From positions 1 to 24,586 of the forward strand of contig CAZJUB010000015.1 in assembly GCA_964549075.1 (NCBI GenBank): a stretch of 24,586 bases of DNA, read 5' to 3'. Each line of letters starts with the position of its first letter. The stretch's first letter is position 1. Shown one piece after another: positions 7,323-23,306 of the stretch. This DNA comes from an uncultured archaeon. Its GTDB lineage: Archaea; Asgardarchaeota; Heimdallarchaeia; Heimdallarchaeales; Heimdallarchaeaceae. Below the pieces are notes generated by a model. It saw only the letters and a list, made by a program, of their open reading frames with translations, was not told the DNA's origin and did not search any database. Made by a program: the position numbers and the translations under genes.

Positions 7323-7844
7323 TTGAATAGAATCGTAGTAATTGGAAATTCAGCATCTGGTAAATCAACTCTCTCAATGAAAATAAAAGAAATACTCGAT
7401 ATTCCAGTCTATCATCTTGATAAAATCCTATGGAAACCAGGATGGGAAAGAACACCAGAAAATGAATTCAGAGAAGAACACGAAAAAATCCTAAATTCAG
7501 AGAAATGGATAATTGATGGAGTTGCTTACAAATCAACACTAGAAGAAAGATTTTCTAAAGCTGATGCAATAATATTTTTAGATATACCTTTAGAAATCTG
7601 TAAAGAAAGAGCACTTCAACGAATGCATGAAGATTTAGAAAGACCAAATCCATATGTTTCTGAAGGATGCCCGTATCCTCTAGAATTAGTCGATGAACAA
7701 AACAAAACTATCGAACTTTTTCATAATGAATATAGAGAATTTATACTAGGGCTATTAAATAAGTACAAAAAAAATAGATATGTTAAGTATCTAAAAGATG
7801 AAGAAGATACAAAAAGATTACTTGAAGACCTTAGAAATTATTGA
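7323..7844 (+). CDS. P-loop kinase, adenylate kinase-like / topology modulation protein (FlaR-like)
   Basis: Walker A GNSASGKST, HLDKILWKPGW, WIIDG and ADAIIFLD. TTG start 10 nt after the MBL stop, probably co-transcribed. Confidence 0.85.
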   Translation: MNRIVVIGNSASGKSTLSMKIKEILDIPVYHLDKILWKPGWERTPENEFREEHEKILNSEKWIIDGVAYKSTLEERFSKADAIIFLDIPLEICKERALQRMHEDLERPNPYVSEGCPYPLELVDEQNKTIELFHNEYREFILGLLNKYKKNRYVKYLKDEEDTKRLLEDLRNY

Positions 7845-8419
7845 TACATTTCTTCTAGTTTTTCCATTGACAATTGGTTGACCAACCATGTAAAAGCCTC
7901 AATTACTCCAAAACCAGTTAAAGCGCTACAATCAAAGACAGCAAAGGTTCGATCTTTCATATCAAGATGCAAATTAAGCAACTGAATTAGCATTGGAGCT
8001 TGTATAGCAGCTGGAAGGTCTTGTTTATTGGCTAGAATTAAAGCAGGAACTCCTACTAAGTAGGGATTATTAATTAGATGAATACGAAGAATATCTCGAG
8101 CTTCAGGTAAACGTTCGATGTCAGCAGCATCTATTACAAATATAACAGCTGAGCTGCCTGGATAATGTATATCCCAAAGAAATCGAAATTGCTCTTGTCC
8201 TGCTACATCAATTGTAGTGATATCCCACCCATCAAAATTTATTGTATCAATATTTTGCCCTATGGTAGGAGTAATACCTTCAAAAAAATCACCTGTATTA
8301 ACATACTTTGTTAAAGTGGTTTTACCTGCAGCATCGAGTCCAAGAATCAGAATTTTAGCTTTTTTTTCAGTTTTTAATTTCCTCATTAACCATCGGGAAA
8401 AATTGGACATAAAGCTCAT
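7838..8419 (-). CDS. Arf-family small GTPase (Asgard Arf-related)
   Basis: G1 GLDAAGKTT, G2 PTIG, G3 DVAGQ followed by RFLW, G4 ANKQD and G5 CSAL. N-terminal amphipathic helix; GGAG RBS upstream. Confidence 0.92.
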   Translation of the reverse strand: MSFMSNFSRWLMRKLKTEKKAKILILGLDAAGKTTLTKYVNTGDFFEGITPTIGQNIDTINFDGWDITTIDVAGQEQFRFLWDIHYPGSSAVIFVIDAADIERLPEARDILRIHLINNPYLVGVPALILANKQDLPAAIQAPMLIQLLNLHLDMKDRTFAVFDCSALTGFGVIEAFTWLVNQLSMEKLEEMYQ

Positions 8420-21234: not shown

Positions 21235-22188
21235 TCAAGAATTTCTAGACATCACATAACCAATTCTCGATGGTTCATTAAGGAAAGGTTCTATGTATTC
21301 AGCAAAAATCTTGGTTCTTTGATTGTTTGTCCAAGAAAATTTCTTTAAATCATATTTTTCTGCTTCTTTTGTTAGAAAACTGATAAAATATGGATATATT
21401 TCTTTTACTTCAGGTAGAATAGCTACAGCAGCAATTTGAGCTGTTTCTGGAGCACCTTTAGACCAAAAAGCTCTACCTATGCCTAAAATCTCACCATTCT
21501 TTTCAATAACAGCTGGTAAATGGTTTTCCAATCTTAATTTTTTCTTTTGAGTTTTTCCAAATGTTTTCTTATATTTTTTCGCCAAGTTATTCATTTCAGG
21601 TATTTCATTTATTATTCTAGTCAGTTTGGTAAGATCTTCTTTTGTAGCTAGCCTGATTTTATACCCATCCAAATTTGAATCAACTTCTAATGGAATTTCT
21701 TGAAAGTATTCCTTTATAGAATAATCTTCAATAAAACCATATTTTTTATAGAGATGAAGTGCTGCTTCGTTTGTATTGTTTACTGATAATTTGATAGTTT
21801 TGTGACTGTATTCTTTAATAATTTTTTTCATGACAATATTCCCAATTCCTCTTCCTTGAAAGTTAGGCCTTGTGAAAAGATTCCCTAACTCATATGAATC
21901 AGTTTTTTTATCAAAAATCATTGTATATCCAGCAACAACTTGTCCTTCATATTCAATGAAAAAATCTTTCATATTTTTTGCAAGAATCTTGAAAGGAACA
22001 CCTAACAAAAATCTATTAATCATACAGATTTTTTTCAAAACAGCGAAATCTATACCTATGATATTCTCTGAGAAATCCCTCGTAGATTCAAAAGCAGATT
22101 CATAAAAAAACATTCTTTCTTTTTCTTTTATCCTTCTGAATTTTAAATTTTCTTTTTTTACTCTGTTGTCTGGGTTCATACTAATCAC
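21235..22188 (-). CDS. Tandem GNAT N-acetyltransferase
   Basis: Acetyl-CoA motif PNFQGRGIG and NEAALHLYKKYGF, plus a second degenerate GNAT domain. Start is GTG 22188 or ATG 22179. Confidence 0.88.
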   Translation of the reverse strand: MISMNPDNRVKKENLKFRRIKEKERMFFYESAFESTRDFSENIIGIDFAVLKKICMINRFLLGVPFKILAKNMKDFFIEYEGQVVAGYTMIFDKKTDSYELGNLFTRPNFQGRGIGNIVMKKIIKEYSHKTIKLSVNNTNEAALHLYKKYGFIEDYSIKEYFQEIPLEVDSNLDGYKIRLATKEDLTKLTRIINEIPEMNNLAKKYKKTFGKTQKKKLRLENHLPAVIEKNGEILGIGRAFWSKGAPETAQIAAVAILPEVKEIYPYFISFLTKEAEKYDLKKFSWTNNQRTKIFAEYIEPFLNEPSRIGYVMSRNS

Positions 22189-22198
22189 ATATTAATAT

Positions 22199-22248
22199 AA
22201 AAAATTCAGGTCTAACGGATTAAGTAGTATCTAGACCTGAGACTTTCT
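22199..22248 (-). terminator. Hairpin plus U6 tract (terminator/attenuator) overlapping the stop codon of the leader ORF
   Basis: Minus strand reads TCAGGTCTA-N17-TAGACCTGA-A-TTTTTT. The 9-bp stem is perfect and extends 7 bp (AGAAAGT/ATTTTTT) with one bulged C and G-U pairs. Confidence 0.6.
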
Positions 22249-22331
22249 TTTTCCAATTCAACTTGTTTAACCATATTCATTTTAGCTATTCTCTTTTCAA
22301 TGTCCATTTTTCTTCTCATATCTATGTCCAT
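22212..22331 (-). CDS. Unannotated 39-aa small protein / leader peptide MDIDMRRKMDIEKRIAKMNMVKQVELEKESLRSRYYLIR
   Basis: ATG preceded by RBS GGTGG at 5-nt spacing, TATA TTTATATT upstream (22402-22395), a 40-codon open frame and helical charged composition. Confidence 0.65.
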   Translation of the reverse strand: MDIDMRRKMDIEKRIAKMNMVKQVELEKESLRSRYYLIR

Positions 22332-22350
22332 AATGACCACCAAACCTAAA

Positions 22351-22435
22351 TTCGATGTTCGAATTACTTCGACAATCGTATTAATCAAAAGTACAATATA
22401 AATTTTTCGATGTTCGAATTAATTTGATAATCGAA
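22351..22435. promoter_or_regulatory. Four palindromic operators TTCGA-N3-TCGAA in two tandem pairs
   Basis: Sites: 22351-63 TTCGATGTTCGAA, 22368-80 TTCGACAATCGTA, 22406-18 TTCGATGTTCGAA and 22423-35 TTTGATAATCGAA. Period is 17 bp within pairs and 55 bp between pairs. Confidence 0.75.
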
Positions 22436-22469
22436 CATTTTATATATAAAAAATCGAAACCTATAATAC

Positions 22470-23306
22470 ATGTCTAAAACAGTAAAATATGCTAAAAAAG
22501 TGTTAGATAAACGTTTTGAAAAACTGTTCGAGAATGAAACACGGTATGGTATCGTAATGGCAATCCGTACTTTTGGTTCCATGAATATCAAAAAACTAGC
22601 AAGAATCATGGGAAAAACAGAAAGTACAATTCACCATCATATTACAGAAATGATAAAAGAGCCAGAAGTTTTAGTCATAGATAATGAAAAAACAACTTCA
22701 ACAAGAGGGATTTATTACAAATTATCAGAAATTACAAAAGAGAGATACCCAAGAGATAAAGAGACCCTTTTCGAAGAAGAGATTCCAACATTAATGAATC
22801 GAGTTTTACAGCTTACAGATGAAGAAATAGCTAAAATGATGTTTTATCGTATGATAAACCAGCCAGATTTTGGAAAAATAGCTCAAAGTATCAAACGATC
22901 GTTATCTTACTATAGAAATATAGAAAATTTCATAGTTAATAGCTTTGAAAGATCTGAAAATGCAATGCGAGAAGGACTAAAACCAGTAAATTTAAACTAT
23001 CCATTTGGCTCTAGTACTATACTGGGGATTGATTTGAAAGTATCAAAAACTAAACACAATTTAGAAATAGCACAAGCAACTTCAGAATTCTTTGCGAAAT
23101 TAGTAAAACTTAATCAAAAATTCAAGAAAGAAATGGATGAAGAAGGAGTAAAAGAAGAAGATAGAATACAGGTTTATTATTATCTCTTTGGTGGAGAATT
23201 AATGGATTTTAAATTTGAAAAAGATGATAATTTTAATCTTAATGAATATATCAAACCAATTGAAAAGAAAATTCAAAAAGTGTATGAAGGAATAGAAGAG
23301 AATTAA
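22470..23306 (+). CDS. ArsR-like winged-helix transcriptional regulator with C-terminal extension
   Basis: NETRYGIVMAIRTFGSMNIKKLARIMGKTESTIHHHITEM...RGIYYKLS. TTTATATA begins 31 nt upstream. Confidence 0.85.
   Translation: MSKTVKYAKKVLDKRFEKLFENETRYGIVMAIRTFGSMNIKKLARIMGKTESTIHHHITEMIKEPEVLVIDNEKTTSTRGIYYKLSEITKERYPRDKETLFEEEIPTLMNRVLQLTDEEIAKMMFYRMINQPDFGKIAQSIKRSLSYYRNIENFIVNSFERSENAMREGLKPVNLNYPFGSSTILGIDLKVSKTKHNLEIAQATSEFFAKLVKLNQKFKKEMDEEGVKEEDRIQVYYYLFGGELMDFKFEKDDNFNLNEYIKPIEKKIQKVYEGIEEN

Follow-up and report, generated by a model that had tools for sequence, protein, structure and literature searches.

A small open reading frame ending in a terminator-like hairpin ahead of a tandem-GNAT acetyltransferase gene in a Heimdallarchaeon

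What is the role of a 39-codon open reading frame (ORF) that lies directly ahead of an acetyltransferase gene and whose own stop codon is enclosed in a hairpin followed by six uridines (U6)? This question is raised by contig CAZJUB010000015.1 of assembly GCA_964549075.1, which belongs to an uncultured archaeon of the Heimdallarchaeaceae and of which positions 1 to 24,586 were analyzed (the whole stretch of 24,586 nucleotides (nt) is hereafter called the window, and the genome that carries it, 3.23 Mb in size, is designated G000). The small ORF, the hairpin, U6 and the gene of the tandem-GNAT acetyltransferase are all read on the minus strand, and the gene of an ArsR-like regulator diverges from them (Table 1). 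The initial annotation had offered two readings for this arrangement, namely leader-peptide attenuation, or an abundant peptide that is the substrate of the acetyltransferase or the ligand of the regulator. We found that the small ORF represents a new and very narrow family in a variant of a known arrangement. The reading that we favor, with about even confidence, is a regulator-controlled two-gene unit with a leaky internal terminator, which varies between lineages and which ribosomes would occlude.

The small ORF has a GGTGG Shine-Dalgarno (SD) site and a TATA box of its own on the minus strand, in agreement with the initial annotation, and its peptide of 39 amino acids (aa) carries the features described there: an internal repeat (MDIDMRRK/MDIEKRIAK), five Met in the first 20 residues (at 1, 5, 9, 18 and 20) and an RSRYYLIR tail. 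An ORF list of the window gives only a TTG-extended frame of 58 codons (22388-22212). Relatives were searched with the GNAT protein (41 related genomes) and with the regulator (all 25 genomes of the genus), together with one metagenome scan and one scan of genome contigs, and nine orthologous loci with a readable promoter-proximal region were obtained. A small ORF occupies the same slot at five of the nine loci, all of them from Heimdallarchaeia, with 39 codons in G000, 41 codons each in G020, G018 and L048, and 83 codons in G004. At the other four (G017, G022 and the near-identical metagenome contigs L045 and L046), the operator and a GGTGA motif are followed directly by the GNAT ATG. Because the same operator and ribosome-binding site (RBS) lead straight into GNAT at these four loci, the small ORF holds the first-cistron slot of one transcription unit. 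An SD-type site before GNAT is kept at every locus with a small ORF. A search of relatives for similar small ORFs, suggested at the outset, thus returned positional counterparts at four other loci and two database proteins, and the comparisons support a small ORF that is real and positionally conserved. Two loci were left out of the nine, G002 being cut by a contig end and G014 being rearranged. In the latter (L022/L047, contig C89), ~2 kb of unrelated sequence stands in place of the promoter region, the first ~120 GNAT codons and any small ORF, owing either to rearrangement or to an assembly error in the metagenome-assembled genome.

The promoter evidence also ties the GNAT gene to the small ORF. 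Throughout the genome, TTTATA peaks at -31 to -29 from ATG codons, as expected for leaderless transcripts, and SD-like 4-mers peak at -13 to -9. The TATA box of the small ORF lies ~70 nt upstream of it, and the genome's -30 TATA spacing would place the transcript start of the small-ORF/GNAT unit near 22372. The GNAT ATG (22179) is found 19 nt past the last T of U6, within the distance of ~10-20 nt given initially, and is preceded by a weak RBS (GTGAT, 22188-22184) and an alternative GTG start at 22188. The claim that GNAT has no well-spaced TATA box was borne out, as its only TATA-like element is a TTTATA at -22, off the genome's peak, and no further TATA was read upstream of GNAT within the small ORF. 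Because GNAT has no well-placed TATA, it most likely depends on the small-ORF promoter and on passage through the hairpin and U6. As judged from this layout, read-through of the terminator-like signal is the likely route to GNAT expression.

The stem at the end of the small ORF consists of nine perfect base pairs (bp) between a 5' arm at 22240-22232 and a 3' arm at 22214-22206, which opens with the TAG stop. The initial description of a 9-bp perfect stem formed by the last codons and TAG and followed by U6 was therefore accurate. The 91-nt fold has an energy of -19.9 kcal/mol (z = -2.86), and one of 200 shuffles was as stable. The minimum-energy stem comprises 12 pairs, that is, the nine plus three inner pairs across a 3-nt bulge; the proposed extension to ~16 bp appeared only in the centroid structure, in which outer A-U pairs consume part of the U-tract. 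A terminator scan revealed no site here because it allowed only loops of up to 8 nt, and Rfam gave no match at E <= 1 over positions 21900-22700.

The hairpin and U-tract did not prove to be a special device of this locus when all gene ends were considered. We compared 2713 ends of ORFs of at least 100 codons in G000 with 2713 random windows of 85 nt. A perfect hairpin of at least 8 bp around the stop was present at 262 of the 2713 ORF ends versus 105 of the 2713 random windows, and such a hairpin followed by T5 at 46 of 2713 versus 3 of 2713; in 39 of these 46 ends the hairpin overlaps the stop codon. The signal is the genome's ordinary gene-end signature, and what is unusual here is its placement before a close downstream gene. 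In particular, a same-strand ORF start within 80 nt follows only three of the 46 hairpin-plus-T5 ends (spacings of 52-76 nt) versus 766 of all 2713 ends. Additionally, among the 176 hairpin-plus-T5 sites on both strands, only this one closes an ORF of fewer than 100 codons with an ORF of at least 100 codons no more than 45 nt downstream. As an observation in its own right, the strong enrichment of stop-spanning hairpins with T5 or more gives this Heimdallarchaeon a signature that resembles bacterial intrinsic terminators.

The two-gene unit that we favor would work as follows. One TATA promoter, flanked by two TTCGA-N3-TCGAA operators, would drive the unit, and the divergent ArsR-like regulator would repress it through these operators. 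The 39-codon ORF would be a translated first cistron and the tandem-GNAT gene the second. Placed 19 nt ahead of the GNAT start, the hairpin and U6 would form an internal terminator that is leaky, giving more small-ORF than GNAT transcript and making GNAT expression dependent on read-through. Ribosomes positioned within the last ~10 codons or at the stop would cover one or both stem arms, and read-through should therefore rise with close coupling of transcription and translation; such coupling-dependent read-through is a natural, still unproven corollary.

Several archaeal systems are comparable to this arrangement. According to an excerpt of the Methanococcus maripaludis study, internal-operon terminators (ioTTS) are present in 38% of operons and lower downstream expression (PMC10450193). 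As in the excerpted description of ioTTS, the window has a U-tract between co-oriented genes of one unit with no promoter for the downstream gene, and the upstream gene is expected to be expressed above the downstream gene (PMC10450193). The U6 at 22204-22199 thus agrees with the definition of an ioTTS as a U-tract of at least five between co-oriented genes and without a downstream promoter. Unlike ioTTS, the window has an upstream gene of only 39 codons and a 9-bp stop-enclosing stem before the U-tract, the signal is found in only some loci, and it is known here from sequence alone. Excerpts of two further reports state that U-tracts together with aCPSF1 dictate termination efficacy in archaea (PMC8716108) and that 59% of the transcripts of a Haloferax reporter ended at one hairpin (PMC7237163). 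For small ORFs, the excerpted ribosome profiling of Methanosarcina mazei placed 10% of the new ones in 5' untranslated regions and 9% between operon genes (PMC11456600). The window's small ORF is similar to those in that excerpt in being archaeal, unannotated and located ahead of a longer gene in the same orientation, with a possible regulatory role (PMC11456600); it differs in that it is only predicted, but has comparative evidence and an RNA structure at its stop.

We then asked how the small ORF itself has evolved. The frame is open at all five loci that carry the insert, and some pairs of these loci have reached saturation at synonymous sites, with proportions of synonymous differences (pS) of 0.57-0.70. 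The dN/dS check proposed initially gave ratios of 0.14-0.46, all below 1: 0.14 for G018-G020 (proportion of non-synonymous differences (pN) 0.23, pS 0.70), 0.28 for L048-G020, and 0.46 for L048-G018, the last from only four synonymous and nine non-synonymous differences. For the same three pairs, the regulator gene gave 0.07-0.13. The G018 and G020 peptides share 24 of 41 residues (59% identity); for the window's peptide, identity to each of the four remaining short forms is 19-30%. In targeted pairwise tests, which were justified by synteny, the window's peptide matched the G018 type at p = 0.001 and the G020 peptide at p = 0.02. A profile search of 5.77 billion proteins revealed six family members, comprising those of four of the above loci, a two-residue variant of the G018 form, and an 83-aa protein ~80% identical to the G004 form. 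The 83-aa frame is open in two strains, whose proteins share 66 of 83 residues. No second copy was detected in the window's own genome by a hidden Markov model (HMM) search. The best-supported account of the small ORF is a young and fast-evolving but maintained gene. The Met-rich N-terminus and internal repeat, to which attention had been drawn initially, were found to be peculiar to G000, as the relatives have two Met.

These results bear on the possibility that the peptide acts in trans as a small protein, either as a partner, inhibitor or substrate of the GNAT enzyme or as a co-regulator or ligand of the regulator, in which case the hairpin and U-tract would define or stabilize the 3' end of an abundant short mRNA. 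The purifying selection over the full length among G018, L048 and G020 is consistent with such a role, as are the open 83-aa form in two strains, the strong RBS and own promoter, and the fact that the small ORF is always found with the regulator-GNAT pair; a terminator after the small ORF would also raise its expression above that of the enzyme, as in the excerpted M. maripaludis work (PMC10450193). However, the regulator and GNAT occur without the small ORF at four of nine loci, so neither protein needs the peptide, and the peptide evolves fast enough for the window's copy to be missed by a profile of its relatives. It has no family, domain or structural match: searches of the small ORFs against Pfam, NCBIfam and PADLOC gave no match above chance, and an ESM Atlas search with the 83-aa form returned no usable feature match, only low-confidence helical look-alikes. 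Co-folding of GNAT with the 39-aa peptide (score 0.01, mark 0.32) provided no evidence either way. The nearest folds of the GNAT protein are VipF, a clavulanate-pathway tandem GNAT, MshD and glucosamine N-acetyltransferase, and thus include small-molecule enzymes (the last two), although the top match, VipF, is described only as an acetyltransferase effector. Taken together, we consider a trans-acting peptide rather unlikely.

The hairpin was also compared across the loci. It has one and the same register in G000 and G020 (paired positions i and j, numbered relative to the stop, sum to -18), and the G020 form has an 8-bp perfect stem followed by CTTATTTT, a weaker T-run. Between G000 and G020, one G-C pair has become A-T and one T-A pair has become A-T, each by changes on both sides, and a third pair has gone from G.U to A-U. 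The stem is unlikely to be a protein-binding DNA palindrome, since its sequence changes while its complementarity stays. The stem covariation that the initial annotation had proposed to test was thus present in G020, but the hairpin was lost in G018 and L048 and was different in G004. The regulators of G018, L048 and G020 are closer to each other in identity than any of them is to that of G000, so that the hairpin and T-run are most simply explained as ancestral features that were lost together in the G018/L048 branch. Such a joint loss would fit one functional but dispensable module.

Several points weigh against the two-gene unit with a leaky terminator. G018 and L048 have mismatches in the shared register, a longest stem of only 4-5 bp and no T-run, and G004 has only 6 bp in another register; therefore, the terminator is not essential to the locus. 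The two compensatory pairs come from one genome pair (G000/G020), and the sample consists of five loci with DNA from one genus-level group. When the whole leader (~200 nt) was folded at equilibrium, the local stem had a pair probability of 0.01 in G000 and 0.09-0.13 in G020. Since a long-range alternative wins in these folds, the hairpin is a proposition of co-transcriptional, local folding. Moreover, archaeal termination is usually described as hairpin-independent in the excerpted text of PMC7237163. Finally, the relationship among the small ORFs was found by targeted pairwise tests and not by profile searches: with an HMM of the four G018/G020-type peptides, the window's peptide was not among the best 8 matches (E up to 2.4; 40,375 ORFs), and with an HMM of the five short peptides, the 83-aa proteins were not among the best 15 matches (E up to 5.6; 40,375 genome ORFs plus both proteins).

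The most conserved part of the peptide is its tail. Only the last ~12 residues are common to all seven peptides, and they stand in a fixed register to the stop, with nine residues from [LFVA]-R to the stop, in the motif [LFVA]-R-[ST]-[RKQ]-x-[YF]-x-[IL]-x-stop. When the last 12 residues were compared ungapped from the stop, p was 0.0002-0.009 in all seven pairs tested, including short versus long forms (composition-preserving shuffles). The N-terminal parts vary in sequence and in length (39-41 versus 83 residues). TAG is the stop codon of each of the five small ORFs with DNA, against a genome-wide share of 21.7% for this stop; the relatedness of the loci weakens this count. In the window, several minor codons are found among the last 10 (CTC, AGG, TAC twice, ATC and CGT).

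The tail raises the possibility of signal-sensing attenuation, in which it would be an arrest peptide: a ligand or stress would stall the ribosome near TAG, and the hairpin would be melted or the U-rich RNA shielded from aCPSF1/FttA, resulting in read-through into GNAT. The shared and stop-anchored tail, the differing N-terminal parts, the uniform TAG and the minor codons are all in line with this proposal, which would be closer to TnaC than to the trp leader, as are the stop codon inside the 3' arm and a terminator-like signal that is atypically near the downstream gene. The stem and shared ancestry also explain the TAG conservation and the minor codons, however, and G018 and G020, with synonymous sites saturated, conserve the whole peptide and not the tail alone. 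The hairpin and U-tract are missing in two of five loci that keep the tail. No conserved antiterminator pairing was found, as the nascent and full-leader alternatives differ between G000 and G020. In the whole-leader fold of the window, positions 22332-22349 in the RBS region pair with 22199-22220 (stop, 3' arm and U-tract) over 17 positions, six of them G.U; this pairing is probably due to chance, as it is not conserved in G020. Among the full-text literature matches listed, none describes an experimentally shown archaeal leader-peptide attenuator or arrest peptide, and the proposal is thus without precedent there. Of the attenuation model in the initial annotation, the small ORF, its promoter and RBS, the GNAT without a TATA box and the compensatory stem have held; the generic nature of the gene-end signal, the missing antiterminator, the hairpin loss and the four of nine loci with no small ORF at all speak against it. 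We regard signal-sensing attenuation as improbable. A Met-sensing version was rejected because the Met run is not conserved.

Ribosome-mediated attenuators and stop-codon arrest peptides in bacteria include the trp leader, TnaC-tnaA and BmrB-bmrCD. The window is similar to these in having a short leader ORF, which is presumably translated, and a terminator-type hairpin with a U-run before the gene that would be regulated, and in that the position of the ribosome would decide whether the hairpin forms. As in TnaC, the conserved part of the peptide is C-terminal, beside the stop. Unlike the bacterial attenuators, the window locus has no conserved antiterminator or regulatory codon run, the hairpin is lost in two of five loci, and the polymerase and termination factors are archaeal. 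In its boldest form, the proposal would be that the tail and TAG constitute a stop-codon arrest peptide that blocks a hairpin/U-tract terminator or shields U-rich RNA from aCPSF1/FttA, and hence the first archaeal ribosome-mediated attenuator, in an Asgard archaeon, recently arisen from the start region of the gene that it controls. We consider this a long shot.

The origin of the small ORF was approached through the start regions, by comparing the small ORFs of L023/L049 (G018) and L048 with the GNAT starts of L004/L050 (G017), L005/L051 (G022) and L046. Over the first 21 coding nt, the G018 small ORF matched the GNAT start at 20/21 positions in G017, 17/21 in G022 and 16/21 in L046, and the L048 small ORF matched the G017 GNAT start at 18/21; most other pairs in the comparison matched at 8-15 positions. 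The small ORF seems, from these matches, to have inherited the ancestral GNAT start region through an insertion or partial duplication just downstream. An origin of the whole small ORF from a duplicated GNAT N-terminus was rejected, as similarity beyond ~7 codons was unsupported (best p = 0.06 in 36 shuffle tests), and the probability reported by hhalign for the small-ORF profile and the GNAT alignment was 0.1%.

The shared start could also be taken to mean that the small ORF is an evolutionary by-product, a young and functionless frame left when an insertion or partial duplication split the GNAT start region from its body, with an incidental hairpin. The 20/21 match between the G018 small-ORF start and the G017 GNAT start, the tiny one-group family (six proteins in 5.77 billion) and the patchy presence at five of nine loci would all be expected of such a remnant. 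However, the frame has stayed open at five of five loci despite pS of 0.57-0.70, where chance would give a 39-codon open frame with a probability of only ~0.04 (our own calculation from base composition). The dN/dS ratios below 1, the conserved tail and the compensatory stem changes are not expected of a functionless frame either, and there is no similarity to the GNAT N-terminus past ~7 codons. We therefore give this explanation very little weight.

The features of the locus are summarized in Table 1.

Table 1. Annotated features around the small ORF (positions in the window).
Feature	Position	Strand	Basis or remark
Divergent regulator gene, 278 aa	22470..23306	+	Helix-turn-helix (HTH) match and orthologues in the same divergent layout
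Regulator TATA box	22439..22446	+	TTTATA starting -31 from ATG, leaderless type
Operator-like O3	22423..22435	.	Same palindrome as O1 with one mismatch; adjoins the regulator's own TATA
Operator O1	22406..22418	.	TTCGA-N3-TCGAA palindrome directly 5' of the small-ORF TATA box
TATA box of the small-ORF/GNAT unit	22395..22402	-	TTTATA begins at 22402
Operator O2	22351..22363	.	Second TTCGA-N3-TCGAA palindrome; within the predicted 5' leader
Small-ORF SD site, GGTGG	22337..22341	-	Begins -10 from ATG
Small ORF, 39 codons plus TAG	22212..22331	-	ATG at 22331, stop at 22214-22212
Stop-enclosing stem-loop	22206..22240	-	9-bp perfect stem, 17-nt loop; from folding and register in G020
U6 tract	22199..22204	-	One base (A) after the stem; read directly
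Tandem-GNAT acetyltransferase gene, 314 aa	21235..22179	-	Pfam Acetyltransf_1, E = 1.3e-16

The palindrome TTCGA-N3-TCGAA has exactly two copies in the 3.23-Mb genome, and both are located in this intergenic region. O1 is conserved in every orthologous locus read and is followed by an ATTTAT(T/A)A element in all of them. The position of O2 immediately 5' of the RBS of the first cistron is also kept in all loci. An imperfect counterpart of O3 is visible in relatives, and O3 may likewise function as an operator. The two local operators and the one-mismatch third copy at the regulator's TATA box suggest a strictly local, autoregulating repressor.

The N-terminus of the regulator matched an ArsR-like winged helix (Pfam HTH_5, E = 1e-4, 22.6 bits against a cut-off of 22), and the NCBIfam ArsR/SmtB subfamily models scored far below their cut-offs; accordingly, the protein can be assigned to the ArsR/SmtB type only loosely. 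No family match was found for its C-terminal ~200 aa. Its orthologues are 57-73% identical and have the same divergent arrangement. We also observed that the regulator is part of a genus-wide family of divergent pairs. Paralogues with ~34-42% identity pair with a different GNAT of ~340 aa (L029-L035, L037-L041), and those with ~28-34% identity pair with an MFS transporter (L036, L042-L044); these loci include contig C16 of G000 (29271-30056). The ORF lists of the 12 paralogous regulator-GNAT (340 aa) and four regulator-MFS pairs contained no comparable small ORF, a few short TTG/GTG frames having been left unexamined. The pairings hint at the logic of a detoxification or efflux-type regulon.

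The AlphaFold model of the GNAT protein (pLDDT 86.5, pTM 0.80) revealed a tandem GNAT. Its close family comprises 17 proteins at E <= 1e-10 among 5.77 billion, and all those with a named source are from Heimdallarchaeia. GNAT toxin-antitoxin pairs such as TacAT, AtaRT and KacAT likewise have a small gene immediately ahead of a GNAT gene in the same orientation; in them, a single-domain toxin of ~160-180 aa follows an upstream RHH antitoxin. Unlike these pairs, the window has a 314-aa tandem GNAT, a small ORF with neither an RHH nor any other domain, a separate dedicated regulator and ordinary neighbors, and a toxin-antitoxin module was rejected; PADLOC gave no match for GNAT or for the 39- and 41-aa small ORFs. 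A precursor of a ribosomally synthesized and post-translationally modified peptide was also rejected in view of the GNAT architecture and the ordinary chromosomal neighbors, with no further modifying enzymes. The other genes of the window are of the ordinary chromosomal kind, including those of an M24 peptidase, a solute-binding protein and an Rce1-like protease, and the window is neither a mobile element nor a biosynthetic cluster. A gene for an Arf-family small GTPase, typical of Asgard genomes, lies at 7838-8419 on the minus strand (Pfam Arf, E = 4e-44).

DNA of the population was present in salt-marsh and marine-sediment sequencing runs; among the 17 runs listed, none was of RNA. Contigs of one marine-sediment run differ from the window by three single-base variants, at 22215, 22388 and 22462. 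The first (one contig, run X7) is the sole variant inside the 39-codon ORF; it is a synonymous change of the last sense codon from CGT to CGC and turns the G.U pair adjoining the stem into G-C, which strengthens the stem. The second abolishes the TTG from which the 58-codon frame could start, and the third falls in the leader region of the regulator.

If the reading as an internal terminator is true, the locus would be a compact Asgard case of a small upstream cistron and a bacterial-looking hairpin and U-tract that tune an enzyme gene, and it is well suited to comparative work. It would also illustrate how a small gene is born from the start region of its neighbor. Attenuation, at present only a possibility, would, if true, be of interest for how coupled transcription and translation evolved. 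The genome-wide enrichment of hairpins with T-runs may outweigh the locus itself, as it bears on whether RNA structure plays a part in archaeal termination. The arrangement described here is unusual within its own genome and points to a testable interplay of transcription and translation in archaea.

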